Notes under the pieces: model-generated
What the model was told of the DNA's origin: nothing
Databases searched by the model: none
What the model saw: the letters and a program-made list of their open reading frames with translations, nothing else
Program-made: the position numbers and the translations under genes
From: an uncultured Candidatus Saccharibacteria bacterium
GTDB taxonomy: Bacteria; Patescibacteriota; Doudnabacteria; UBA920
Direction: 5' to 3'
Length of the DNA: 36,142 nt
Assembly (NCBI GenBank): GCA_964470855.1
Contig: CAYYEK010000001.1
Coordinates: forward strand, 1-36,142
Part shown: in pieces, positions 8,537-34,900 of the stretch
Layout of the letters: the number at the start of each line of letters is the position of its first letter
Numbering within the stretch: position 1 is the stretch's first letter

Positions 8537-10735
8537 ATGGGTCGAAAAAAGAAGCTCTGGAAAAAAAGTACTACACAATACTTCTTGCAACTTTTTAAAG
8601 TTAGCATTAGTGATGAAATCAAAACCACTTTGCTTGCGATATTTTTGTTTATCGCGTCTTTAGTGGTTGCGTTGGCCTTACTAGGATTTTCTGGTAGTTT
8701 TGGCGTCAGATTTAGTAGCTTTCTAGTTTCTGTTTTCGGTTTTGTTGCCTACTTATTGCCCCTGTTTTTGTTAGGTGCGCTTTGGCTACTGCTAAAAAAT
8801 GCCGGACAGAAAGACAGCTCGGGAATAGGTAAAAAAACTGTCTTCAGTCTGTTTTTGTTCTTTGCTGGCTTTTTAGGTTTGTGGCATCTGGTTTTTACTT
8901 TGCTTGAAGGGCGAGAGTTGTGGGATTTTAGTTTTGCACCAACCGGAGCTGGGGCAGTGGGGGTTGTACTTTCCGGTGTATTTCTAAAGGCTTTTGGCGC
9001 ACCCATAGCCGGACTAATTTTAATTGGAATAATGATTTCCGGGCTGGCTATCATGGCCAATTGGGAACTTGCTAAAATCAAAATTAAATGGCCGGCCACC
9101 AAACCCGCTGAACAGGCTGCAGTAGGAGCTTTGAAGCTAAAAATAAACGCTCCGCAAGATGCAAACTTTGTGGCTAAAAATGTAGATCAGCAACCGGAAC
9201 CCAGAAAGCCGGAGCAGGCGCCGGTCGCGCCCATGCCCATTGTTCATGAGTCTAAGCCTAGACAGCAAGAACTTATCCCGGATGCAGTAGTATTGACTGA
9301 AAAAACAGACTGGAAGCTTCCTCCGTTTGACATCTTAGACGACAAGAAAACCAAGGCCGATAGCGGCAACATCGAAGCCAACGCAGCCATAATCCGCAAG
9401 ACCTTGTCTGACTTTGGTATATCCGTGGAGATGGGTGAAGTCAATGTAGGGCCAACTGTGACGCAGTATACTTTACGGCCAGCGATAGGGGTTAAGCTTT
9501 CACAGATTGCGGCATTGAAAAATGATTTGGCGCTGGCTCTTGCCGCATCTTCTTTGCGTATGGAACTTCCTATACCAGGGAAGCCGTATGTGGGAGTAGA
9601 GGTCCCAAACCGTGCTGTGTCCAAAGTACTTTTACGCGATGTTATGCAAACCCCAGAATTTATCAACCACAAGAGTCCTTTGGCGTTTGCACTGGGTAGG
9701 GATGTTTCGGGTGCTCCGGTTGTCGCTGATTTGGTGAAGATGCCGCATATGTTGATTGCTGGCTCTACTGGTACTGGTAAGTCCGTGGCTTTGAATTCGT
9801 TGATTTTAAGTTTGCTGTATCGTAACACCCCCCAAAGGGTTAAGCTCATAATGATTGATCCAAAAAGGGTGGAGATGAGACCGTACAATGGCATACCACA
9901 TCTGATCACAGCCCCCATTATGGATTCAGATAAAGCAGTTAATGCTATGAAGTGGGCGGTTAACGAAATGGACCGCAGATTTAAGTTGGTTTCCGATGCT
10001 CAGAAAAAGACCATCGTGGACTACAATGAATCTGCTGCAACGCAGTTGCCGTATATCGTGATCATCATCGACGAGATGGCCGACTTGATGACTGTAGCGC
10101 AGGCTGATATAGAGGCGGCGATCGTGCGTTTGGCTCAGATGGCCAGGGCGGTTGGCATTCATCTGGTTTTAGCCACCCAAAGTCCACGAGTGGACATTAT
10201 TACTGGATTGATCAAGGCTAACATATCTTCCAGGATGGCGTTTAAGGTCACTAGTCAGTCAGAAAGCAGGATTATCCTAGATATGAGCGGGGCAGATCAA
10301 CTTTTGGGCAATGGCGACATGCTTTTTGTCTCACAAGGTGATGCGGGCCGTCCGCGGCGGGTACAGGGTTCGTTTGTGACAGACACTGAGGTGCATAAAG
10401 TTGCAGAATTTTTCATACACCAAGCTGGAGTAGTGCTGTATAACGACGAAGTAGTAGAAAAACAGAAAGGGATATCCGCTGTAGGAGGATTTGATGATAG
10501 CGAAGGTGATGAGTTTTTGGATGAGGCCAAACAAGAGGTACTACGCGCAGGCAAGGCTTCAGCCTCTTTTCTTCAGCGACGTTTGAAAATAGGGTATGCA
10601 AGGGCGGCTAGGATACTTGATCTTTTAGAACAACAGGGGGTTGTGGGTCCAGGGGATGGTGCAAAACCTCGTGAAGTATATGGCGCTACCGGGTCTGATG
10701 GACTAGATGATGACTTTGACAGGTCTGGGTTTTAA
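8537..10735 (+). CDS. ftsK: DNA translocase FtsK/SpoIIIE
   Basis: N-terminal polytopic membrane domain, Pro/Gln linker, IAGSTGTGKS Walker A, IIIDEMADL Walker B, and a C-terminal gamma winged helix (ASASFLQRRLKIGYARAARILDLLEQQGVVGP). Confidence 0.93.
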   Translation: MGRKKKLWKKSTTQYFLQLFKVSISDEIKTTLLAIFLFIASLVVALALLGFSGSFGVRFSSFLVSVFGFVAYLLPLFLLGALWLLLKNAGQKDSSGIGKKTVFSLFLFFAGFLGLWHLVFTLLEGRELWDFSFAPTGAGAVGVVLSGVFLKAFGAPIAGLILIGIMISGLAIMANWELAKIKIKWPATKPAEQAAVGALKLKINAPQDANFVAKNVDQQPEPRKPEQAPVAPMPIVHESKPRQQELIPDAVVLTEKTDWKLPPFDILDDKKTKADSGNIEANAAIIRKTLSDFGISVEMGEVNVGPTVTQYTLRPAIGVKLSQIAALKNDLALALAASSLRMELPIPGKPYVGVEVPNRAVSKVLLRDVMQTPEFINHKSPLAFALGRDVSGAPVVADLVKMPHMLIAGSTGTGKSVALNSLILSLLYRNTPQRVKLIMIDPKRVEMRPYNGIPHLITAPIMDSDKAVNAMKWAVNEMDRRFKLVSDAQKKTIVDYNESAATQLPYIVIIIDEMADLMTVAQADIEAAIVRLAQMARAVGIHLVLATQSPRVDIITGLIKANISSRMAFKVTSQSESRIILDMSGADQLLGNGDMLFVSQGDAGRPRRVQGSFVTDTEVHKVAEFFIHQAGVVLYNDEVVEKQKGISAVGGFDDSEGDEFLDEAKQEVLRAGKASASFLQRRLKIGYARAARILDLLEQQGVVGPGDGAKPREVYGATGSDGLDDDFDRSGF

Positions 10736-15706: not shown

Positions 15707-16021
15707 ATGCTAACCCCAGAATTTATAGAAGAAATGCGACAGGTTCTGTTGCAAAAAAAACTTCAGTTAGAGCAAGAGTTGCTCGGACTTCAGCCCCATG
15801 TGGAGCTTGGAGAAACCGAAGAGGACACTGCTGCTGAGTTGCCTATTGACGAGCAGAGTCAGGATCTTATAACACATATCAAACAAGATTTGAGAAAAAT
15901 CGATAAAGCTTTGGCTAAAATTGATGCAGGGACATATGGTGTGGATGATGAGGGAAGGGAGTTTGCAGAAGAACAGCTACGAGCCAATCCATACGCGGAA
16001 GTGGCTTTGGTAGTGGATTAG
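15707..16021 (+). CDS. DksA/TraR-family protein lacking the zinc-finger cysteines
   Basis: Coiled-coil N-terminus, then KIDKALAKIDAGTYGVDDEGREFAEEQLRANPYAEV. This aligns with the DksA/TraR C4 region, but both first-pair Cys positions are replaced and the protein ends before a second pair. Confidence 0.65.
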   Translation: MLTPEFIEEMRQVLLQKKLQLEQELLGLQPHVELGETEEDTAAELPIDEQSQDLITHIKQDLRKIDKALAKIDAGTYGVDDEGREFAEEQLRANPYAEVALVVD

Positions 16022-19014: not shown

Positions 19015-20331
19015 ATGAGTAGCAAAGTTGGTATGAAACAAAAATTTTCAAAGAGTATATTTTTTAAGCTGTTGATGGTCTTTGTGGGCTTCTCTTTATT
19101 AGCTGCTGGTTGCGGGGGTGGAGGTGGTGGTAGCAATGAGAGTCTTGTAGTATGGACTGTCTACGATAATGACGAGACCCTTCGACCGGTGATTGAGTCA
19201 TTTAGGGCCAAACGCAAAGGGGTGGAGGTTAAGCTGCAGGTGGTAGACCCAGGGGACTATGAAGACCAGCTTTTAAACGCCATGGCGTCAGGCAGAGGTC
19301 CGGATGTTTTCTTTATACACAATAGCTGGCTACCGAAGTATCTTGATAAAATCTCTCCTGCCGAGAGTTCGGTTTGGCAGTATAGTGATTATAAAAATAC
19401 ATTTGTAGATGCCTTGTCTAGCGATTTTACCAAGGACAGGCAAGTTTATGGGGCGTCGCTATATGTAGATAGTTTAGCTTTGTTTTACAACAAAGACTTA
19501 CTTGGAACCGCAGGTATAGCCCGCCCACCAAGAACTTGGGCGGAGTTGGAAGTAGCCTCACGAAAGCTTGCTCGTTTGAACATTAACGGCTATTTTAGCA
19601 GAAGCGGTGTGGCTTTAGGTTTGTCCAGTGTGGCACCGGGAGGGCAAATCAATCGCGCGGAAGATGTGTTGTATTTGTTAATGCTGCAAAAAGGAGTGAA
19701 GCCCTGGTCTGAGGATGGTTTAAGTCCGGAGTTTGGCTCTGGGGATAGTGCAGCCGCAGCAGAGGAGGCTTTAAGGTTTTATACATCATTCGCCGATCCA
19801 GCTGGGGATAACTATACTTGGAATACTTTGAGCGATTACTCTATAGATGCATTTGCTAACAGTCGCGCTGGTTTAATGATCAATTATTCGTACGCCCGGG
19901 GGCTTATAGAGCAGAAGGCTTCAAATCTGAACTATGATGTTGCCCCAGTGCCCCAGCAGTCTTTGGATGTGTCGGAGTCTAACTTTGCCTCGTACTGGGG
20001 GATGGTGGTTTCCAAACAGAGTGAGCTGCAAAAAGAAGCTTGGGATTTCATAAAAGCCGCCACCAGTAAAGATGCTTTAGATAAATACGCTGGGGTAACC
20101 AAACTCCCTTCTAGTAGAAGAGACTTAATAGAATTACAGGTCAATGATCCTGAAGTAGGGGTATTTGCTCATGCCAATTTGACTGCAAAAACTTTTTACC
20201 GTCCTGACCAGCCGAAATTTGACGCCATAATCGCCGAGATGATAGATGATGTCGCTTTGCGTGGATCGCTCCCCCGCGAAGCTTTGTCTAAAGCCCAAGC
20301 ACAAGCAGCAGAAATTCCAACTGGCAAATGA
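19015..20331 (+). CDS. ABC-transporter family-1 extracellular solute-binding lipoprotein (sugar type), no cognate permease or ATPase nearby
   Basis: Lipobox LLAAGC followed by a Gly run. DVFFIHNSWLPKY, YGASLYVDSLALFYNKDLL and PRTWAEL are typical SBP_bac_1 blocks. The start may be the ATG at 19033, because TGcTATAAT (19004-19012) lies only 2 nt before 19015. Confidence 0.8.
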   Translation: MSSKVGMKQKFSKSIFFKLLMVFVGFSLLAAGCGGGGGGSNESLVVWTVYDNDETLRPVIESFRAKRKGVEVKLQVVDPGDYEDQLLNAMASGRGPDVFFIHNSWLPKYLDKISPAESSVWQYSDYKNTFVDALSSDFTKDRQVYGASLYVDSLALFYNKDLLGTAGIARPPRTWAELEVASRKLARLNINGYFSRSGVALGLSSVAPGGQINRAEDVLYLLMLQKGVKPWSEDGLSPEFGSGDSAAAAEEALRFYTSFADPAGDNYTWNTLSDYSIDAFANSRAGLMINYSYARGLIEQKASNLNYDVAPVPQQSLDVSESNFASYWGMVVSKQSELQKEAWDFIKAATSKDALDKYAGVTKLPSSRRDLIELQVNDPEVGVFAHANLTAKTFYRPDQPKFDAIIAEMIDDVALRGSLPREALSKAQAQAAEIPTGK

Positions 20332-20867
20332 AACAACCTATGAGTAAAAAAATATTTATTACCTTGTTCGTGGTTTTTGCCATGGTATTTTTGGTCGGGT
20401 TTGGTGCGTCTGCTCAAGCTGCTTTAGTTGACTGTGGAAATGCCGTTTCTCCAACAGACTCCTCAACAGGATGCAAGTTGGGAGATATACTGACTACAGC
20501 CTTTAATCTTATAGAGTATATGCTGGGAGGTGCGGCAACCTTTGCAGTGGCTGGGGTGGTTTATGGAGGAGTCTTGATGGTAACCTCTGCGGGTAATGAA
20601 AGTAGGTCAACTGAAGGGAAAAAAGCAGTAACTAATTCTCTCATAGGTTTGGCGGTCATCTTGTTGGCCTTTTTGATGGTTAGAACCTTGTTTACGGTGC
20701 TGGGTTTTGATAGTGCTGACCAAGTTCTGACTAGTCCGGATAACTACATAAACTCCGGGCAGGAGCAGATGTTTACCCCAGGATCAAGCGGCAACTCAGC
20801 AGGCCCCGGTACACAACCGGCAAATTGTGGCAGGTGGGACTTTATTACAGGAAACTGCGGAAAATAA
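20328..20867 (+). CDS. pilin-module protein A: signal peptide, short Cys-loop ectodomain, VirB2/TrbC-like two-helix module, 55-aa C-terminal tail
   Basis: The ATG overlaps the SBP stop (ATGA). Signal peptide ends ASAQA. Module is VVYGGVLMVTSAGNESRSTEGKKAVTNSLIGLAVILLAFLMV. Cys pairs at C36/C49 and C167/C177. Confidence 0.8.
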   Translation: MKQPMSKKIFITLFVVFAMVFLVGFGASAQAALVDCGNAVSPTDSSTGCKLGDILTTAFNLIEYMLGGAATFAVAGVVYGGVLMVTSAGNESRSTEGKKAVTNSLIGLAVILLAFLMVRTLFTVLGFDSADQVLTSPDNYINSGQEQMFTPGSSGNSAGPGTQPANCGRWDFITGNCGK

Positions 20868-20883
20868 GAATTATAAGTCAACG

Positions 20884-22116
20884 ATGAAAACAATACATGC
20901 TACATGGATAGGTCTAGTTTTGGGATTATTGGTTTTGATTTTTCCCAAGGTCAGCTTGGCGGCTTGTCAGATGCCGGTTCAAATTTCGTCTAGCGACTAT
21001 AATATATCTACCGGCGATAAATTTATAATTACTGCCACCGTGGAAGGCATAGTTCCGGCTGTGGGTTGTGGTAGAAAGACTAAACCAGTGTTATTAGTTT
21101 TATTTTTGCTCGGAAATGGGGGCAAGGATCTAAAGTATGGGGAGAGTAGTCCGGGTTTTAAACCTGAGCCTGGCGCTAACGAAAAATTTAGTTTCCAATG
21201 GGAGCTTGACACTTCAAAATTAGACAAGAGTGTATTTTACCGAGATGCTTCCGGTAAAATTTCAATTAAACCAAAAGCCTCACTTTTTGCAGACATAGGA
21301 GGTGCGAGCGACGATTATAGGTCAGTCTCAGAGAGTGGTCGTTTAGAAATAGCATTGACTGGTTCTAGCGGTTCTTCTAGCATGCTTGGGTTGTCGGGTA
21401 ACGTATATTTTAAGCCTCAAAAGTCTTATTATAATCAGGGAGAACAAGTCCAAGTTTTGCTAAATCTCACCGGATCTTCCAGAGAAGAATTGAAAAAGTC
21501 TGCTACAAATTTTAAGAATTTGTACATCAGTCTTTTGATAAACGGAAAATCGTCTGGGGGGTTTTCTAGGTCGATTGGAGATTTTATCAATAGCGATCAA
21601 TTTTTTGATGTAGAAGTGGGGACTGCTAAGGGCTTTCAAAAGGGAAATAACGCTATCACGGTAGAGCTGTGGGAGGTCAAAGAGGGGGATGGGCCAAAAC
21701 AAAAATTTTTATCAGCTACAGCTCAACTACAAGCATTCGGCGATGCCTTACCTGAACCACCAGCCCAAGGCGGTGTGGGCAATGGTACTGGAGGTGGAGC
21801 AGGTGGATCTGGTAATTATGCAGGAGGGGGTAGTGAAAATGTTACTACCAATCTCTCCGTGTCGGGTAGTTTGAGAAATCCTGTGAAGTTTGAATCCGCT
21901 GGCCAGCTGATTTCTGGGGTTATTTCTTTCTTGCTTGGCCTTATAGGTGCGCTCTCAGCGCTGTTTATAATAATCGGTGGTGTGATTATGATTACCGCTG
22001 CTGGTAGGCCGGAGCAGCTTACCAAAGGCAAAAAAACCTTGACCTGGGCGATACTTGGCCTTGCAGTATCTTTTCTGGCTTACAGTTTGATAGCGATAGT
22101 TCAAAACAGTCTTTAG
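20884..22116 (+). CDS. pilin-module protein B: signal peptide, ~300-aa beta-rich ectodomain, Gly-rich linker, VirB2/TrbC-like module
   Basis: The ORF is open from 20827. The ATG at 20884 gives MKTIHATWIGLVLGLLVLIFPKVSLAA. Linker is GGVGNGTGGGAGGSGNYAGGGS. Module is FIIIGGVIMITAAGRPEQLTKGKKTLTWAILGLAVSFLAYSLI. Confidence 0.8.
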   Translation: MKTIHATWIGLVLGLLVLIFPKVSLAACQMPVQISSSDYNISTGDKFIITATVEGIVPAVGCGRKTKPVLLVLFLLGNGGKDLKYGESSPGFKPEPGANEKFSFQWELDTSKLDKSVFYRDASGKISIKPKASLFADIGGASDDYRSVSESGRLEIALTGSSGSSSMLGLSGNVYFKPQKSYYNQGEQVQVLLNLTGSSREELKKSATNFKNLYISLLINGKSSGGFSRSIGDFINSDQFFDVEVGTAKGFQKGNNAITVELWEVKEGDGPKQKFLSATAQLQAFGDALPEPPAQGGVGNGTGGGAGGSGNYAGGGSENVTTNLSVSGSLRNPVKFESAGQLISGVISFLLGLIGALSALFIIIGGVIMITAAGRPEQLTKGKKTLTWAILGLAVSFLAYSLIAIVQNSL

Positions 22117-22123
22117 ATTTTGT

Positions 22124-22897
22124 ATGAAAAAATTACGTTATTTTTTTAGATTATCGGCTTTTCTTTTTACAGTTATAAGTGTTTTTTACTTTGGTCCTTT
22201 TGGGACTTTACACGCCCAAGAAGCTAGTGAGTGTACTGGTCAGCCTGTTCTAAGGGAAGGCAGTAAAGATGTCGCTTGTGTGAAAAAAATGAAAAACTTA
22301 CTAAGTGGACATTTAAACTTGGCTGACAGTGGGTCTTCATCTTTTAATCCCACTTCATCTGATTTTGGGAAGTTTGATTCTAGTACAACAGAGGCCGTAA
22401 AAGCTTGGCAGGAATCCAAAGGCATAACCAGAGACGGTATAGTTGGGCCGCAAACTTGGGCTACCTTACTTTGTAAGGACTGGGACGAGGCTAACAAGAA
22501 ATGCAAAGACGCTCAAACTGAAAAACCTCCAGCAGACATAACTCCTGATCCAGGTAGTACTCAACTATCTGCTGCGGAATGCGAGCGATTAAAGAGGGAT
22601 ATCGCGGAGTTCGGAGAGGGTGAACAGATAAGTAGCCTTCTTTCTTCCCGTTGCTATACACCAGGAGGTTTTGTTAGCAAGTTGGTTTCTTGGCTTCTGT
22701 CCATAGCTGCGTCACTTGCGGTGTTGTTCTTTGCTTTTGGTGGAGTCAGGTACATGACTGCTGCTGGTAATCCGGACGCGATGAAGTCTGCAAAGCAGAT
22801 TATGAAGTGGTCTCTTTTCGGATTGGTGGCAGTATTGCTTGCTTACACGATAGTAACTCTAGTAAAAAATATCACTACTTCAACTCAAATTTTATGA
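22124..22897 (+). CDS. pilin-module protein C: signal peptide, peptidoglycan-binding (PG_binding_1-like) domain, linker, VirB2/TrbC-like module
   Basis: FDSSTTEAVKAWQESKGITRDGIVGPQTWATL is the classic PG-binding repeat end. Module is FFAFGGVRYMTAAGNPDAMKSAKQIMKWSLFGLVAVLLAYTIV. Confidence 0.8.
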   Translation: MKKLRYFFRLSAFLFTVISVFYFGPFGTLHAQEASECTGQPVLREGSKDVACVKKMKNLLSGHLNLADSGSSSFNPTSSDFGKFDSSTTEAVKAWQESKGITRDGIVGPQTWATLLCKDWDEANKKCKDAQTEKPPADITPDPGSTQLSAAECERLKRDIAEFGEGEQISSLLSSRCYTPGGFVSKLVSWLLSIAASLAVLFFAFGGVRYMTAAGNPDAMKSAKQIMKWSLFGLVAVLLAYTIVTLVKNITTSTQIL

Positions 22898-22903
22898 GGT
22901 CTG

Positions 22904-22912
22904 TGGTATAAT
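22904..22912 (+). promoter_or_regulatory. extended -10 promoter TGgTATAAT internal to the cluster, upstream of protein D
   Basis: TG at 22904-22905 and TATAAT at 22907-22912. It is followed by a TATTTGT/ACAAATA leader hairpin and a GAGAGGGGG Shine-Dalgarno-like run. Confidence 0.55.
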
Positions 22913-22959
22913 ATACATGTTGCTATTTGTAAAGTAGACAACAAATAATTTGAGAGGGG

Positions 22960-23352
22960 GTGAATGAATTGACCTATTTCAAAAAGTTTTTAAAATACGC
23001 ATGGTTACCAATTATTGCCCTAGCCTTTTTCACTTTCCCAGGATTTGCCGGTGCCCAGTTGAAAGCGCCCAGCGGTCTTTGTGCTGACGGTTTAAACTGT
23101 GAAGATGTGTCTTTAAATGGACTGATTATCAAAGTCATAAACTGGATACTAGCTATAGTTTTGGCGATAGATGTTTTGGTCATCATCATTGGTGGGTTTT
23201 TGTACATCACATCAGCAGGCAATGAAGAGCGTGCTAAGTCTGGCAGAAAAGCAGTGATCAACGCTATCATCGGTTTGATCATTATCATCATGGCCTACGT
23301 CATAGCACAAGTGGTAAACAGCTTCTTTTCAGAAGAAGATATGGGTGCCTAG
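22960..23352 (+). CDS. pilin-module protein D: minimal member (signal peptide, ~25-aa Cys loop, VirB2/TrbC-like module)
   Basis: GTG at 22960. An in-frame TTG at 22969 is better spaced from the GGGGG run. Signal peptide ends GFAGA. Cys loop is CADGLNC. Module is VIIIGGFLYITSAGNEERAKSGRKAVINAIIGLIIIIMAYVIA. Confidence 0.8.
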   Translation: MNELTYFKKFLKYAWLPIIALAFFTFPGFAGAQLKAPSGLCADGLNCEDVSLNGLIIKVINWILAIVLAIDVLVIIIGGFLYITSAGNEERAKSGRKAVINAIIGLIIIIMAYVIAQVVNSFFSEEDMGA

Positions 23353-23360
23353 TTTATCAT

Positions 23361-23408
23361 CGTGCTGCGCTGGCAAGTTAGAAAAAGCTTAAGCTCCGGC
23401 GCAGCACG
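23361..23408 (+). terminator. 13-bp intercistronic stem-loop directly after protein D (attenuator, partial terminator or processing site)
   Basis: CGTGCTGCGCTGG (23361-23373) pairs with CCGGCGCAGCACG (23396-23408) with one G-U pair. The loop contains the palindrome AGCTTAAGCT. Only a weak T-tract follows. Confidence 0.45.
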
Positions 23409-23458
23409 GTGGTGGTTTCTTAGTAAGCGACTGTTCGTTTTTTGAGAAATCAAAACTT

Positions 23459-24295
23459 ATGAAAAATAAAATCATCATAACCCTTGCAATTCTTTTTTTG
23501 TTGCTAACGCCACGCCTTGCCAACGCCCAGTCGTTGGGTGCTGCAATACAAAGCAGCTGTCCTAAAGGAGATTCAGAAAAATGCACTACAGCAAAGCTGT
23601 TTTCCGAGGGTGTTGTGGTATTAAAATTTACAAACAGAAGTGGCCAAAATAATGAACCAGCAGAAGCTGTTGAATTTGTTTATTTGGAGAATGAGAATAA
23701 AAAGTTTACTGAGCTACTCCATTCTGTACGGAGTGATGACCAGTTAACGGTAAACATCCCAGAACTACCCGCTGGCAAAATATATTCGTTGTTTTATACT
23801 TTAAAAGGCGAAAATCAGGCCAAACTCTACCTTATCAAACAAGATCTGCCCGTTGCTACAGCTGAGGCTGGTACCGGTAGCGGGCAGACAGGAAGTGGAG
23901 GGACAAATACAGGAGGTCAGAACCCTACGGGAGGTGGAACAACCGGAACGGGCGGTGGTCAGCAAGTTGCGTCTGGTGATGGGAAGATACGGGATGGCCT
24001 AGAGGCTATAAAAGGAGAGTTTAATACTACTGGCGATATCGCTGGTGCGACTTCCATAGGCGGACTCATAGTTGGAGTGATCAGATTTTTGCTCGCTTTG
24101 CTTCTGGCCCTGGCGGTTTTAATGATTATCATAGGAGGGTTTATATACCTAACCTCAGCGGGCAATGAAGACAAAGCCAAGAACGGCAGAAAAACCGTGA
24201 TGTACGCCATCTACGGACTCATCATAGTCATCTTGTCTTATATGTTGGTTAATGTTGTTGAGCGTGCCATATCTACTGGTAACCCAGATGAATAA
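23459..24295 (+). CDS. pilin-module protein E: signal peptide, ~110-aa ectodomain, long Gly/Thr-rich linker, VirB2/TrbC-like module
   Basis: Signal peptide ends RLANA. Linker is GTGSGQTGSGGTNTGGQNPTGGGTTGTGGGQQ. Module is MIIIGGFIYLTSAGNEDKAKNGRKTVMYAIYGLIIVILSYMLV. Confidence 0.8.
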   Translation: MKNKIIITLAILFLLLTPRLANAQSLGAAIQSSCPKGDSEKCTTAKLFSEGVVVLKFTNRSGQNNEPAEAVEFVYLENENKKFTELLHSVRSDDQLTVNIPELPAGKIYSLFYTLKGENQAKLYLIKQDLPVATAEAGTGSGQTGSGGTNTGGQNPTGGGTTGTGGGQQVASGDGKIRDGLEAIKGEFNTTGDIAGATSIGGLIVGVIRFLLALLLALAVLMIIIGGFIYLTSAGNEDKAKNGRKTVMYAIYGLIIVILSYMLVNVVERAISTGNPDE

Positions 24296-24301
24296 TATTT
24301 T

Positions 24302-25435
24302 ATGAAAAAAGTGTTCACATTACTATTTGCGTTGTTATTTTTAACTGTTGGGATGGGTGTGACAGCCGCGGAACCTAGCTTGCGAGTGGTGCCAGAAGCT
24401 GCTTTACCGGGCGATCAAGTGAAACTCATAGTAAGTGGTGATAGTTTGTTGGAGAAGGAGTTTTGCGTGTATGTCAATGACGCTAAAGACCGTTGTTTTG
24501 AAAGCACAGGTCTTCCAAAGTTTGTTTCTAAAAAAAACAATACCGTAACATTTCGCGTACCAGAGTCGGCAAAGCCCGGGGAGTATAGTTTAAACGTCTT
24601 AGTCAAAGAGTCTGGTAGTACAGCCAGCCGAGTGCTTTCAAACTGGCTGCAAGTCAACACCGCCTCGGCACAGCAGGAGTTAAAAATATTAGAGGTCTTT
24701 GGTTGTTTGAAAAGTGATACCAAAGAGTGCAAGATGGGTCTAGTTGAACAGGGTGGAATTTTGAGCTTTCAGATAAATTCTAGCGCTGTTTCGCAAACTG
24801 ATAGTATCCAAGTCGCTTTAGGTGATATTTCATTGTCTATTAGTAACGTGGATGAGGGCAAAGGGGTGATCTCTGCTGAGCTTCCTGTGGCTATACCTGT
24901 TGGTGACTACTTTATTAATCTTACTTATCAAGGGATGTCTGCCCAATCAACTGTTAAGGTTGTCAAAGCAACTGACCTTTCTGTTTTGCCTGATATCAAA
25001 GTAGAAGTGCCACCTATAGGCCAGGGAAAAACTCCACCAAAAGAAACAGATGTTTCTCCCAATCCGGTGGATTTGAATAAGGATTTGGACTGCTCTGGTC
25101 TGGGTTTGGTGCTGGATCCCGCGACTGGGCTTTGTTTGCCTGCAGATTTGGTGAAAGGTGAGCAGGGGTCGTTAGCAGGAAGCAGGAGTGTTGGTGAAGT
25201 TATAAAGGTAGTGCTCAACTTTTTATTGGTTTTAGCTGGCGTGATAGCAGTGCTATTTATGATGATTGGTGGTTACCAGTATCTTATGTCTCGTGGTAGT
25301 GATGAAATGGCCAAGAAAGGCCGCTCTACCATGACAGCGGCTATCATCGGTTTAGTAGCTGTATTGCTCGCTTGGACTGTGGTAAATATAGTGACCAATG
25401 CAGTGACTTTGGGGACAGGGTCGTTGTTTAGATAA
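24302..25435 (+). CDS. pilin-module protein F: signal peptide, two Ig/IPT-like repeats, Pro-rich spacer, divergent VirB2/TrbC-like module
   Basis: SLRVVPEAALPGDQVKLIVSG ... VTFRVPESAKPGEYSLNVLV, and a second similar segment ending PVGDYFINLTY. Module is FMMIGGYQYLMSRGSDEMAKKGRSTMTAAIIGLVAVLLAWTVV. Confidence 0.8.
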   Translation: MKKVFTLLFALLFLTVGMGVTAAEPSLRVVPEAALPGDQVKLIVSGDSLLEKEFCVYVNDAKDRCFESTGLPKFVSKKNNTVTFRVPESAKPGEYSLNVLVKESGSTASRVLSNWLQVNTASAQQELKILEVFGCLKSDTKECKMGLVEQGGILSFQINSSAVSQTDSIQVALGDISLSISNVDEGKGVISAELPVAIPVGDYFINLTYQGMSAQSTVKVVKATDLSVLPDIKVEVPPIGQGKTPPKETDVSPNPVDLNKDLDCSGLGLVLDPATGLCLPADLVKGEQGSLAGSRSVGEVIKVVLNFLLVLAGVIAVLFMMIGGYQYLMSRGSDEMAKKGRSTMTAAIIGLVAVLLAWTVVNIVTNAVTLGTGSLFR

Positions 25436-25627
25436 ATTTAGTACCTACGCACCGCACACTTTTATACATTAAAAATTCCTTTTAAAACAGCTTTTGACCG
25501 ATCTCTTCGTTAAAATACTGCGGTTATTTTCACCGTAGTAGTACTACGCCTTCAAATAATCCTCGTATTTTGCCTCGATCTCGGCCAAATGCGTAGGTTC
25601 TTAAATTTTGTAAAATTTAGTAAAGAA

Positions 25628-25661
25628 AGCAAGGTCAGCAAAAAGACTTTGCTTTTTTTTT
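25628..25661 (+). terminator. rho-independent terminator closing the pilin-module cluster
   Basis: AGCAAGGTC-agcaaaaa-GACTTTGCT (9 bp, one G-U pair) followed by a T9 run. Confidence 0.8.
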
Positions 25662-25856
25662 GATTTTTATGTATAGTGTATGCTAATTGCGGTTTAAGAA
25701 TTGTTTTTTAGCTCATGTGGCGGAACCTTCCCTTGTCTCCTGTTTCGTCCCGACAGGTCGGGACCTCGCAGGATAAGCGCGACTATGGAAGAGCAGGTAG
25801 GCTCAAGTGAGGGGTTAGTGTTTGCAAAGTAAATGTATCTAGCGGAATTAATTTGT

Positions 25857-25943
25857 GCCCAGGTGGCGGAATTGGTATACGCGCATGGCTTAGGACCATG
25901 TGGGAGAAATCCTGTGGAGGTTCGAGTCCTCTCCTGGGCACCA
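25857..25943 (+). tRNA. tRNA-Leu (anticodon TAG), class II with long variable arm, CCA encoded
   Basis: Acceptor GCCCAGG/CCTGGGC, anticodon arm CATGG-CTTAGGA-CCATG, variable arm GGGA-gaaa-TCCT, T arm GGAGG-TTCGAGT-CCTCT, then ACCA. Confidence 0.9.
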
Positions 25944-25995
25944 TCTGTACGATACGCATACACGCGTTGTACTAGAACATAGTAAGAAACTTCGT

Positions 25996-28154: not shown

Positions 28155-28231
28155 GGGCGCATAGCTCAGTTGGTTAGAGCGCAAACTTGACGTGTTTGAG
28201 GTCTCTGGTTCGAATCCAGATGCGCCCACCA
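28155..28231 (+). tRNA. tRNA-Val (anticodon GAC), CCA encoded
   Basis: GGGCGCA-TA-GCTC-AGTTGGTTA-GAGC-G-CAAAC-TTGACGT-GTTTG-AGGTC-TCTGG-TTCGAAT-CCAGA-TGCGCCC-ACCA. Confidence 0.93.
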
Positions 28232-28252
28232 GCCTTCGCCGTAGGCTACGTC

Positions 28253-28328
28253 TGGCAGGCCAGTGAACCACCCATTCAGAATACTTCGGGTTCATGGCGG
28301 GCCAGTGAACCACCCGTACAGGGTACTT
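28253..28328 (+). repeat. two 34-nt direct repeats, 42-bp period, immediately downstream of tRNA-Val
   Basis: TGGCaGGCCAGTGAACCACCCaTtCAGaaTACTT (28253-28286) vs TGGCgGGCCAGTGAACCACCCgTaCAGggTACTT (28295-28328). 29/34 identical. Confidence 0.85.
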
Positions 28329-28541
28329 TATTTGAAGACAAACTGGCAGAATGCCTATCATTCGTTTGTTATCAGACCGGAGTATGTAAGGGTGGCTATA
28401 CCGAGGGGGTTAAAGATTACAAGGCTGCAAAGCTTTGTTTTATGAACATTAAAAAATGTAAAAATCAAAAAGTGAATGTAGTCCGGTGAATTGACGCTAC
28501 ATTTCAGTTTTGACTTTTACATTTTGCATGAAAGTAGCAAG

Positions 28542-32581: not shown

Positions 32582-34900
32582 ATGCAAGAGAGTAACTCTG
32601 CTGGCGTTGGTCCAGCAGCCCGGAAATCCAGGCAGTATAAATTTACTGCTCAAGACTTTGTAAAGGCACTGATCAGTCCTAAGGTCTTGTTTACAGCAGT
32701 GTTTTCAGCTGTTGTGGTTAGCACTGCTTTGCTTTTGGCCGTAGTGGCGGTCAATGGTGACCAGAATAATCCTGTGGTTAGAGCCTTAGGAGCTTATGCC
32801 GGGCTTTTGTACCCGACAGAAGTGACTAAGTATAGGTATCTAAACAATAATACAACAGGTTGTCCGACCATAGTCCCCCAAAATGCGTGGAGAGGTTGTT
32901 ACTATAAATACAGTGGAACAGATTATTTTAACCCGGCTAATTTTTTAGTCACTCGCAACGTTAATCAAATAAGTTTTGACTGGCTGAACGGTTCTCCAGA
33001 ATCGGTCGTACCTTCGGATTATTTTAGCGCTAGGTGGGAGGGTGACTTTAACTTTGAGTCCGGTGAGTATACTTTTACGGCTGTGAAAGACACTGGTATG
33101 AGGGTGTTTCTTGACAATAAGCTGGTTTTTGATCGCTTTTATTCTGAGGCTAACGAAAAATTCACTTTTACGTCCCAACTTACATCTGGTATCCACAGAG
33201 TTAGGGTTGAGTATTATGAGTCAACAGGCTTGGCAGCAGCTAAATTGTCCTGGGCTAAAACAAGCTCAGCTTCGGGCGGGGGCGGTACAGGCACGGTGCC
33301 TGGTCTAGGATTAAGCAAAATTTCTGGACCGGCGGTTGTGGACTCTTGTAATACATCTACAATAACCTTGAATATAATTACCGGAGCCAAAGACGTAGAA
33401 CAGGTGATCTCAAGTCAAAATGCCAACTACTACGCTCCAGAATTACCTCGGTTTATTGGCGCTGCAACCACAGTGACTTATGTGGTCGACGCGAATAAAT
33501 TCAAGGCAGGCGACAATACATCCGTGACTTTTGCCTTGAGAGATATCACATCAAAATCGGTGGAGAGTTCAATTAAGGTAACCCGCCAAGATAATTGTGG
33601 AACTAAAGGTTCAGTACAGCTGACTACTCCAACCGTATATCAGTGTACACAAGGAAAGATTGGTGGGACCGCCCCGGAAGGAAATGTCTCAGATGTGAAG
33701 GTCATAGTGACCCAAGGGACAGGAAAAGTGGAAATCACAAATATCAAAGATAGTAACTATCCTTCCATTCTTAAACCTGAATCAAACAACAACACAGGCA
33801 CTTGGACGCGGAGTTTGACTACACAAGACTTTAACTACACTTCAGGTAAAACTCTGACAGCGGTAATTTCGCTGAAAGATTATCTAACCAGTGCGGTTAT
33901 AGACAGCAAAACCTTGACTATCAAGGTTGATACAACCGACATATGTAATCCTCTTATCTCATCCAGCATCACGGTTGGGAGTGTGTATGCTGCGTGTTTA
34001 GGTGGTAATGGTATCAAATCGTTTACCGATAACCTAAGCGTGACTAATGGTTCTACGACTGCGGCTGGGCTTCATATTTTCTGGAACGGCACAGATCGCG
34101 GAGAGTTGATGCGGGTTGAGGCTCGCGCCACCGAAGTAAGATCTAGGTATGTTTTAGGCATAGACGGAAAAAATGGAGACAAAGTGCTGTTTACGCTAGT
34201 TCGTGATGGTAGCGGTGACCCCAATCAACGCATAATCGCTATGGCTCCTGAACTTACGGTGCAAGACAACAAAGCTTGTGCGCCCACCGGCTCTATTCTT
34301 ATAAACGACACAGCTTTGCAGACTATTGATTTAAGTACTTGTGGCCTAAGAGGGTTTGCCAAAACCGCTAAATTGACCGCTAGGATAGACACGCCTTTTG
34401 GTGAAGGTGTTGTGGTAGTTGGTAGTGGTACCTACTCACCTGTGCCGACGGAAAAGGTCACAGACGCTAATGACGTGACATTCACTGTAGATGCAGAAAA
34501 AATGGGTGTGACTTCAGGCGTGACTTTTAACATCAAAAGTACAATTAGCGATAATTTCGTTCAGGGTGCTGGCGTGGTCGTATACAGGAGCGATGCGGCT
34601 TGCGGTAATAGTATAGATGGAGCTCAAGGTTTTGATCCAAATGCTACCCCGCAGTATACCAGCGACATAGCGTATGAAAACACTTACGTAGTTCTGTATG
34701 GGACTTTTCCTTCAAGCGGGAACTCCCTCGTCTCCGCCGGAAGTGTGAGTGGAACTATAGACTGGCAAGGGATGCAGCCATCCGGAACTTACAGCCAGAT
34801 TAACATTAAACTAGGCCCTGGCGCCGGGACTGCAACTTTTGCGGTGAGCAATTCTCGCGGTCAGTCAAACACAATTTCTATTCCAGTTGTTAAGAGGTAG
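32582..34900 (+). CDS. N-terminally membrane-anchored surface protein: PA14 domain plus about five Cys-delimited beta modules
   Basis: TM helix VLFTAVFSAVVVSTALLLAVVAV. The PA14 block is SDYFSARWEGDFNFESGEYTFTAVKDTGMRVFLDNKLVFD ... GIHRVRVEYYESTGLAAAKLSW, then a GGGGTGT linker. Modules of ~80-120 aa are each introduced by D-x(1-3)-C (DSC, QDNC, TDIC, QDNKAC, SDAAC). Confidence 0.8.
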   Translation: MQESNSAGVGPAARKSRQYKFTAQDFVKALISPKVLFTAVFSAVVVSTALLLAVVAVNGDQNNPVVRALGAYAGLLYPTEVTKYRYLNNNTTGCPTIVPQNAWRGCYYKYSGTDYFNPANFLVTRNVNQISFDWLNGSPESVVPSDYFSARWEGDFNFESGEYTFTAVKDTGMRVFLDNKLVFDRFYSEANEKFTFTSQLTSGIHRVRVEYYESTGLAAAKLSWAKTSSASGGGGTGTVPGLGLSKISGPAVVDSCNTSTITLNIITGAKDVEQVISSQNANYYAPELPRFIGAATTVTYVVDANKFKAGDNTSVTFALRDITSKSVESSIKVTRQDNCGTKGSVQLTTPTVYQCTQGKIGGTAPEGNVSDVKVIVTQGTGKVEITNIKDSNYPSILKPESNNNTGTWTRSLTTQDFNYTSGKTLTAVISLKDYLTSAVIDSKTLTIKVDTTDICNPLISSSITVGSVYAACLGGNGIKSFTDNLSVTNGSTTAAGLHIFWNGTDRGELMRVEARATEVRSRYVLGIDGKNGDKVLFTLVRDGSGDPNQRIIAMAPELTVQDNKACAPTGSILINDTALQTIDLSTCGLRGFAKTAKLTARIDTPFGEGVVVVGSGTYSPVPTEKVTDANDVTFTVDAEKMGVTSGVTFNIKSTISDNFVQGAGVVVYRSDAACGNSIDGAQGFDPNATPQYTSDIAYENTYVVLYGTFPSSGNSLVSAGSVSGTIDWQGMQPSGTYSQINIKLGPGAGTATFAVSNSRGQSNTISIPVVKR

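Follow-up and report, generated by a model that had tools for sequence, protein, structure and literature searches.

Six tandem genes for predicted VirB2-like pilins, most of them bearing passenger domains, on a Patescibacterial contig

The stretch of DNA analyzed here, referred to as the window, comprises 36,142 nt of contig CAYYEK010000001.1 (assembly GCA_964470855.1, positions 1 to 36,142, forward strand) from an uncultured Candidatus Saccharibacteria bacterium that GTDB places in the Doudnabacteria (UBA920). It harbors six adjacent genes, designated pilins A to F, whose products are, with high confidence, paralogous VirB2-like pilins of Patescibacteria. Each of the six proteins is predicted to be exported via a cleavable signal peptide and contains a two-helix hairpin module. 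Beyond this hairpin, A, B, C, E and F comprise an additional 55 to about 300 residues, and D alone is minimal. The interpretation favored here, to which we assign an even chance, is that D is the major subunit of a pilus in which A, B, C, E and F serve as minor modular pilins, assembled by a type IV secretion system (T4SS) encoded elsewhere in the genome. The array is composed as follows (bit scores without a family name refer to PF18895).

20328-20867, plus strand: pilin A, 179 aa, 32.7 bits, transmembrane (TM) segments; signal peptide, Cys loop, PF18895 hairpin (aa 54-120, nt 20487-20687), then a tail
20884-22116, plus strand: pilin B, 410 aa, 39.7 bits; signal peptide, orphan ectodomain of about 300 aa, Gly-rich linker, C-terminal PF18895 hairpin (nt 21898-22089)
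22124-22897, plus strand: pilin C, 257 aa, 49.4 bits; signal peptide, PG_binding_1 domain (43.5 bits, nt 22346-22468), six Cys, C-terminal PF18895 hairpin (nt 22673-22864)
22960-23352, plus strand: pilin D, 130 aa (about 98 aa mature), 41.0 bits; signal peptide, small Cys loop, hairpin (nt 23110-23316); minimal pilin
23459-24295, plus strand: pilin E, 278 aa, 39.6 bits; signal peptide, ectodomain of about 120 aa, long Gly/Thr-rich linker, C-terminal hairpin (nt 24050-24259)
24302-25435, plus strand: pilin F, 377 aa, 44.9 bits, and 40.3 bits for NF045849; signal peptide, beta-rich ectodomain of about 240 aa with six Cys, Pro-rich linker, C-terminal hairpin (nt 25181-25393)
25622-25659, plus strand: terminator-like hairpin with a downstream T-run, about 190 nt past F

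An earlier note on this DNA had described six consecutive genes with signal peptides on the same strand, and the list of open reading frames (ORFs) and their translations bear this out. All six leaders are N-terminal, hydrophobic and 23-33 aa long, and end in an AXA-like site. For pilin B, translation probably starts at the ATG at 20884 and not at the GTG at 20827, which results in the normal signal peptide MKTIHATWIGLVLGLLVLIFPKVSLA. The transcript of the array likely ends at the hairpin listed above.

In each of the six proteins, two strong hydrophobic segments are separated by a loop of about 16 residues that contains 2-4 K/R versus 1-2 D/E. As the net charge of the loop is positive, the positive-inside rule predicts a cytoplasmic loop and places both termini outside the cell. 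All loop strings quoted in the earlier note are found as exact matches in the sequence, and the codons of the loop motif (T/M-S/A-A/R-G) start at 20583, 21994, 22757, 23209, 24152 and 25286. Among the six paralogues, the modules share 22-49% pairwise identity, with BLAST E values of 4e-9 to 3e-29.

To assign the module to a family, profile hidden Markov models (HMMs) were used. All six proteins match PF18895 (T4SS_pilin) above its curated gathering cutoff (32.7-49.4 vs. 26.6 bits), so that the guess of the earlier note that this family covers the module was correct. The proposed likeness to VirB2/TrbC holds in part. PF04956 (TrbC/VirB2) is also matched by 26 of 62 close relatives of D and by 20 of 148 large relatives (best E 4e-7), and PF18895 is thereby bridged to the canonical TrbC/VirB2 family; a direct link to the solved VirB2 or TraA was obtained neither by sequence nor by profile nor by Foldseek comparison. 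The NCBIfam family NF045849, which represents the Mbov_0395 family pilin-like conjugal transfer protein of Mycoplasma integrative and conjugative elements, has a cutoff of 40 bits, which is exceeded by F (40.3) and missed by C (35.6), D (30.7), E (28.4) and B (27.3); pilin A gives no match to this family. An AlphaFold2 (AF2) model of D, built from a 62-sequence alignment, is a helical hairpin with helices at residues 52-84 and 89-129 and a predicted local distance difference test (pLDDT) score of about 90. Neither a class III signal peptide nor a G/FTLxE prepilin motif is present in any of the six translations: their leaders are of the ordinary type I with AXA-like sites, and the hydrophobic module is a C-terminal two-helix hairpin. 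A tblastn search with D against 72,556 plasmids returned no match.

The regions N-terminal to the module, previously described as not conserved, indeed show no mutual similarity among the six proteins (BLAST, best E 0.09 between paralogues). Several other features of these regions had been described correctly as well, namely the peptidoglycan (PG)-binding domain of C (the PG_binding_1 match listed above), the short Cys pair ahead of helix 1 in A and D, and the Gly-rich linkers of B and E, which are seen directly in the sequence. The C-terminal tail of A (about 55 aa, extracytoplasmic) holds a second Cys pair. Two Ig/IPT-like repeats had been proposed for F. The Ig-like character is weakly supported by sub-threshold Pfam matches (E 0.002-0.03), the internal repeat is not significant, and a single-sequence AF2 model of F is beta-rich with low confidence (pLDDT 45). 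The number of Cys residues is even in all six proteins and every Cys lies outside the TM helices, which fits exported proteins with disulfide-bonded extracytoplasmic folding. The ectodomain of B retrieved itself alone in a database-scale search, and aligns over about 300 aa (22-32% identity) only to proteins at array position 2 of distant relatives. Full-length C found three proteins as a database query. Searches of PDB sequences with the B, E and F ectodomains gave nothing informative.

Pilin D differs from its neighbors in the signals that surround its gene. Two elements flank it in the window.

22904-22912, plus strand: extended -10-like element TGGTATAAT in the C-D spacer, read from the sequence
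23356-23451, plus strand: double stem-loop directly 3' of D, first hairpin at about 23361-23412

The ribosome-binding site of D is AGAGGGGG. For comparison, related arrays were collected by searching a single genome of each GTDB species with an alignment built from D-like proteins; this gave 414 relatives, and 80 loci were kept. In these arrays, D-like genes are flanked by spacers with medians of 97 and 90 nt, compared with 6 nt at the other array junctions, and a strong Shine-Dalgarno match precedes 22% of the D-like genes vs. 4% of the others. Of 74 related arrays, 25 have the pattern TGnTAnAAT in the 150 nt that precede the D-like gene, as a consensus match only. The stem-loop 3' of D has a minimum free energy (MFE) of -50.3 kcal/mol (z -7.8) in the window; the median MFE in the clade is -27 kcal/mol vs. 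-14 kcal/mol in controls. Its core is CTGCGCCG...CGGCGCAG, and equivalent spacers are found in related loci L002, L003, L005, L006, L007, L009 and L060. In eight of the nine closest genomes, the first hairpin retains a stem of 17 bp, 10 pairs of which show compensatory changes. For this stem, 94.9% of cells are paired, in comparison with 80.3 +/- 1.9% in shuffles and at most 50% in slid controls. No Rfam family matches the stem-loop, which may act as an mRNA 3' stabilizer, as a terminator or attenuator, or as a protein-binding site. D is also the best conserved paralogue, with 56-70% identity in close relatives. Taken together, these features suggest that the minimal pilin D is expressed or regulated separately from the other genes of the array, and make it a candidate for the major subunit.

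The array itself is conserved. The nearest relatives are Doudnabacteria or Patescibacteria metagenome-assembled genomes (MAGs), and a same-strand array of 5-8 genes encoding the pilin module is found in nearly every related locus with sufficient flanking sequence. In the closest relatives, the order of the paralogues is A-B-C-D-E-F, or B-A-C-D-E-F in some. No DNA repeats longer than 38 nt occur between the paralogues, and a recent duplication or recombination cassette was rejected on this ground; together with the maintained order, this points to an old, stable cassette and not to a recent amplification. A survey of relatives for the same array and for exchange of ectodomains had been suggested in the earlier note; the array recurs in the relatives, and the ectodomains turn over between genomes. 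Full-length alignment to the nearest relatives is limited to A, C and D, whereas the alignments of B, E and F do not go beyond the module and linker. C has full-length orthologues in all close relatives. For F, the C-terminal 110-200 aa align with the orthologues and the rest does not. The orthologues of E in L002 and L003 lack the ectodomain (138 and 162 aa), and C-terminal tails raise the orthologues of A to as much as 432 aa. Judged from these alignments, ectodomain turnover is much faster than turnover of the module.

The extra residues are confined almost entirely to the ends of the proteins. The pilin ORF set comprises 443 ORFs from 82 sequences (the window, the 80 loci and one short contig with the same sequence as a portion of the window), of which 159 encode at least 200 aa and 57 at least 300 aa. 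An N-terminal extension of at least 70 residues, signal peptide included, is present in 185 of the 443 and a C-terminal tail of at least 50 residues in 30. Extra residues amount to as many as about 445 at the N-terminus and about 260 at the C-terminus, and the length of the loop is essentially invariant across 451 modules of the clade, with two insertions of at most 7 aa. The ectodomains form 84 BLAST clusters among 215 sequences. PG_binding_1 passengers were identified in 15 proteins of the clade by Pfam and in about 45 by BLAST clustering; Amidase_2, TIG, DUF11, an FN3-like domain and PG_binding_3 are single cases.

In the wider family, the hairpin is also found in concatenated form. A census by HMMER scan of 1.84 billion representatives yielded 82,067 clusters at 50% identity, and 149 of the 150 top-scoring entries (P0135-P0283) contain 2-17 tandem hairpins per protein with a median linker of 19 aa. 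These proteins are referred to here as poly-pilins. A single signal peptide is present in all five poly-pilin sequences that were inspected, and non-module stretches of at least 150 aa in 29 of the 149. A gene-calling artefact behind the multi-hairpin proteins was rejected in view of the one leader and the regular 15-28-aa linkers. Poly-pilin loci include L084, L086, L087 and L088, and some poly-pilins are encoded within pilin arrays. In a different lineage of the Candidate Phyla Radiation (CPR), one poly-pilin with eight modules is followed by a pilin-PKD fusion and then by a 718-aa PKD protein. At L086:10001-15328 (GCA_975902405.1), a 1,775-aa protein with about 17 hairpins has archaeal-looking surroundings (ribosomal protein L39e, Cas4, NosD/beta-helix), which suggests that neither the family nor the concatenation of its hairpin is confined to CPR bacteria. 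Among the 80 related loci, a conserved di-pilin of 203-231 aa with two modules occupies array position 2 in eight cases; these form a sub-clade with five-gene arrays of small, passenger-free pilins.

Di-pilins, first four loci: L027:8793-9437, L032:8814-9479, L046:8899-9555, L052:8556-9167
Di-pilins, other four loci: L056:4533-5228, L067:8532-9143, L074:8910-9566, L080:8801-9466

To characterize the neighborhood of the array, all ORFs of at least 100 aa in the window were scanned, except opposite-strand shadow ORFs nested in the genes concerned. The gene directly upstream of the array encodes a solute-binding protein, the stop codon of which overlaps the start of pilin A (ATGA).

19015-20331, plus strand: solute-binding protein, SBP_bac_1 (Pfam, 112 bits), weak MalE match in NCBIfam, LAAGC lipobox-like leader

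The remaining genes of the window have housekeeping character. Those further upstream encode a DHH phosphoesterase, CTP synthase, a glycosyltransferase, Hsp20, FtsK, an HTH_25 (RodZ-like) protein and RecA, as well as a DEDDh exonuclease, a DksA-like protein, LspA, ComM and an NTP transferase. Downstream of the array are tRNA-Leu, FtsH, tRNA-Val, RNase III, SMC, S16, a PA14 protein and KhpA. FtsK (8537-10735) is the sole FtsK/HerA-type ATPase in the window, and was rejected as a candidate coupling protein because its domains (4TM, alpha and gamma) are those of a complete, genuine FtsK. The DksA-like protein (15707-16021, 104 aa) is a DksA/YteA-like zinc-finger regulator by a sub-threshold NCBIfam match and is found upstream of LspA/ComM in 38 related loci. 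The tRNA-Leu(tag) gene (25857-25943) lies between the array and ftsH, and the tRNA-Val(gac) gene (28155-28231) past ftsH; a minus-strand ORF at 25694-25963 and an ORF at 28187-28489 are probably spurious overlaps of these tRNA genes. The PA14 protein (32582-34900, 772 aa) has a PA14 domain of 56 bits and no other recognizable domain, and could be a surface adhesin with which this organism binds carbohydrates.

Much of this neighborhood is shared. A block consisting of ComM, NTP transferase, solute-binding protein, array, FtsH, RNase III, SMC and S16 is present in about 60 of the 80 loci. A homologue of the solute-binding gene is located upstream on the same strand in 58 related loci, mostly directly adjacent, with a gap of -50 to 1412 nt to the first pilin gene. 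It is thus a conserved neighbor of the array, which may reflect functional coupling or plain synteny. The region between the array and ftsH is variable: some relatives have minus-strand blocks there (e.g. L029:11879-16018, L074:10814-14140 and L079:11461-16193) that encode 440-620-aa proteins without a Pfam family, and in others the gap contains a Ser/Thr kinase or a cold-shock-domain protein. Hidden T4SS genes were considered for these minus-strand inserts and rejected, as they encode kinases, penicillin-binding proteins, tRNA synthetases or proteins of no family. The Doudnabacteria-type synteny and the array are common to MAGs labelled Doudnabacteria and to many labelled Saccharibacteria (L002, L003, L005-L008 and others); the latter label is probably generic or wrong for those MAGs.

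How the six proteins might work together can be outlined from the topology of the module. The hairpins would be stored in the cytoplasmic membrane, from which a VirB4/VirB6-type T4SS encoded elsewhere would extract and polymerize them into a pilus or a short conduit across the cell wall. The loops would line the lumen of the filament and both termini would lie on the outside, which is the arrangement in all solved conjugative pili, where the charged loop lines the lumen and the termini are outside (10.64898/2025.12.18.695078). As the major subunit, D would build the shaft; the other five pilins would be incorporated sparsely or at the tip, with their passengers held on the filament surface by flexible Gly/Pro-rich linkers. 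The passengers, i.e. the PG-binding domain of C and the beta-rich, disulfide-bonded, rapidly diverging domains of B, E and F, could then bind cell-wall or surface structures of the host or of the cell itself. The outcome would be a mosaic display system for episymbiotic attachment or uptake. Several of the observations fit this model. Elaboration at the termini or head-to-tail, and almost never in the loop, fits the geometry of a pilus and favors a polymerizing unit over a generic two-TM anchor, and tandem hairpins with linkers of about 19 aa are expected for units that pack side by side. That D is free of additional domains, best conserved and apparently separately regulated, together with the terminal position of the passengers, supports a filament of one major subunit and minor modular pilins. 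A T4SS elsewhere in the source genome is likely, since VirB4 is reported for 2,407 of 3,035 CPR assemblies (PMC12102498), at least one Doudnabacteria genome included.

A number of results weigh against this interpretation. Pfam scans of the ORFs detected none of VirB4, VirB6, VirD4, PrgI and TrsD in the 36-kb window, as the earlier note had claimed for the T4SS machinery. Within 10 kb of the 80 related arrays, the 65 largest flanking ORFs that lack a counterpart in the window gave no T4SS family in two Pfam scans, the second of which covers the best 25 of 39 families and could leave a weak match of E > ~2e-9 outside these. None of the window proteins reaches the PF04956 threshold; the best of them is pilin E, at E=0.57. 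A profile search of PDB sequences with the six modules found no pilin but spurious TM matches alone, and Foldseek comparison of the D model with the PDB gave a best E of 1, with the archaeal conjugative pilus 8dfu at E 5.3. With hhalign, the D-family profile reached a probability of <1% against VirB2 (8cue/8exh) and TraA (5ler/9moq), the sequences of which had been verified against the PDB entries beforehand. The power of such structural and profile comparisons is low for a bare two-helix hairpin, which is too simple for Foldseek to discriminate. No imaged pilus of this pilin family was found in the literature for any CPR organism. A pilus with a 30-kDa domain on every subunit would be sterically implausible, so that mosaic assembly is required: domains of 200-300 aa on a filament of about 8 nm would not permit a homopolymer and would need sparse or tip incorporation among D subunits. 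The roles of the promoter element and the stem-loop are read from a consensus and from predicted structure, respectively, and a PG-binding domain would be equally sensible on a purely membrane-resident protein. The display scaffold or heteropolymeric filament envisaged in the earlier note thus gains from the separate status of D, the terminal passengers and the poly-pilins, while its polymerization is not proven by them. In its broadest form, this would be a hairpin polymer of a large CPR clade, either a T4SS pilus or remote from a T4SS, that constitutes a mosaic display scaffold with poly-pilins as pre-assembled blocks, bears host-binding, PG-binding or hydrolytic domains grafted at either exposed terminus, is co-expressed with the sugar-binding lipoprotein and functions as the organelle of attachment and uptake of the episymbiont; this is put forward tentatively.

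Other explanations share part of this evidence. The hairpin could be a common two-TM membrane anchor (internal in A, C-terminal in the others) that never polymerizes, its loop perhaps with a sorting signal and D a domain-less remnant or a regulator, with PG-binding and adhesin-like beta domains tethered to the membrane and reaching into or through the monoderm wall on their linkers. The topology and the long Gly/Pro-rich linkers suit such a tether, PG_binding_1 is sensible beside the cell's own wall, and the reading is favored by the lack of assembly machinery near the array, in the window and in the 80 relatives, and of a detectable likeness to solved pili. An anchor would, however, not be expected to keep a fixed loop length and the GG..Y.TSAGNE..G+K motif across paralogues of 22-49% identity and more than 80,000 clusters, or to be concatenated 2-17-fold in one protein. 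Moreover, the domain-less D-like gene is the best conserved and specially regulated one, as for a structural subunit and not a remnant, and small PF18895 members are located inside the essential T4SS cluster of S. epibionticum. The anchor is the main rival of the filament, and we regard it as rather unlikely.

Alternatively, each paralogue could form its own homopolymeric pilus, the array providing antigenic or host-range variation, as put forward for CPR arrays in PMC12102498. High divergence of the paralogues and turnover of ectodomains between genomes agree with this proposal. It is nevertheless improbable: repeats or recombination cassettes are absent between the paralogues at the DNA level, the identity and order of A-B-C-D-E-F are conserved across species, which indicates that all six are kept together and not swapped, the genes are tightly packed and appear co-transcribed with D alone set apart, and homopolymers with domains of this size would be sterically unlikely at a width of about 8 nm. 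Least probable by our estimate is a membrane- or wall-spanning uptake structure that is formed by the hairpins and the co-transcribed sugar-binding lipoprotein independently of VirB4. It would account for the solute-binding gene upstream on the same strand in 58 loci with its stop/start overlap in the window, for the lack of an ATP-binding cassette (ABC) permease or ATPase partner for the solute-binding protein and of T4SS genes in the 36-kb window, and for T4SS genes not being found beside any of the 80 arrays. Yet such a structure has no known precedent, the spacing between the binding gene and the array is not constant among relatives (-50 to 1412 nt), and VirB4 is nearly universal in CPR. 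In addition, the synteny of ComM, NTP transferase, FtsH, RNase III and SMC is equally conserved, so that the adjacency of solute-binding gene and array may be neutral.

If the filament of D with minor modular pilins is correct, VirB2-type pilins are not always bare 70-residue subunits, and passenger-bearing pilins would also account for the retention of many paralogues. The working definition of VirB2-like pilins as invariably small two-TM proteins is challenged, and HMM and size filters built on it would miss or mis-describe thousands of family members. CPR pilins with outward-facing PG-binding, hydrolase-like and adhesin-like domains would lead to testable hypotheses on the contact with the host wall or surface. 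The stem-loop and spacers around D entail a prediction of subunit stoichiometry that can be checked in existing metatranscriptomes and metaproteomes.

With the canonical pilins VirB2 (Ti), TrbC (RP4) and TraA (F), the window proteins share a leader that is cleaved off, a pair of hydrophobic helices with a short charged loop between them, and extracytoplasmic termini. Canonical pilins measure about 65-80 aa in mature form and lack passengers; in the window, only D is minimal (about 98 aa) and most proteins carry passengers. Canonical pilin genes adjoin virB4, virB6 and virD4, whereas the window array does not, and a VirB5-like tip protein is not evident in the window. PrgF(B2) of pCF10 (10.64898/2025.12.18.695078) and the Mbov_0395 family are likewise monoderm two-TM hairpins with a charged loop, of the MPF-FATA-type class, and VirB4 of CPR is related to monoderm systems of this type. 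Both are single small genes in the conjugation operons of mobile elements, in contrast to a six-gene chromosomal array with passengers. Tandemly amplified, divergent T4SS pilin genes in an obligately host-associated bacterium are also known from the VirB2 arrays of Bartonella and Anaplasma, as cited in PMC12102498. As far as they are described there, those pilins are small and thought to serve antigenic variation, whereas the window paralogues are ancient and positionally conserved and differ mainly by grafted domains.

A comparable design for display on a filament is that of type IV pili, in which several minor pilins are encoded beside one abundant major pilin. Modular type IV pilins such as PilB and PilC of Streptococcus sanguinis combine a conserved polymerization module with adhesive or lectin-like domains. 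Type IV pilins possess a single N-terminal helix, and their fold and machinery are unrelated to the two-helix hairpin of the window module.

The closest counterparts are the arrays published for Patescibacteria. Quinonero-Coronel et al. 2025 (PMC12102498) applied PF18895 and PF04956 to 3,035 CPR genomes and described 441 arrays of 2-11 pilin genes each, with a mean paralogue identity of 25% and a maximum of 54%. VirB2-like pilins were present in 1,948 VirB4-bearing assemblies, near virB4 in 1,135 of them and not near it in about 40%. The novelty implied in the earlier note for a pilin array away from a T4SS is therefore not borne out, both having been published in that study, and its definition of an array (at least two pilin genes in tandem or with one non-pilin gene between them, Patescibacteria, high divergence) applies to the window. 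In S. epibionticum, a series of predicted pilins inside the T4SS cluster is essential (Wang et al. 2023, PMC10633639), and a 2025 review lists six structurally conserved, sequence-divergent VirB2-like pilins of this species and speculates on a pilus conduit. T4SS and pilin array are essential in the one genetically tractable CPR bacterium, with a role described as 'completely unknown' (PMC11665869). The known Patescibacterial arrays (SEML1_0014-0019, the TM7x 'Sec secreted array' and the 441 arrays) share with the window PF18895, tandem same-strand genes, low paralogue identity, a location on a CPR chromosome and a context without relaxase. In S. epibionticum, every pilin is small, with sizes from 103 to about 190 aa, and encoded inside the T4SS cluster. 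In the window, by contrast, all pilins but D carry passengers (about 55-300 aa), the array lies between a solute-binding gene and ftsH, as it does in about 60 related species, and one minimal paralogue is set apart. Large passengers, their restriction to the termini, their fast turnover, a conserved cassette remote from the T4SS, a D gene with a covarying stem-loop, and poly-pilins appear to be new relative to the CPR pilin literature that was found.

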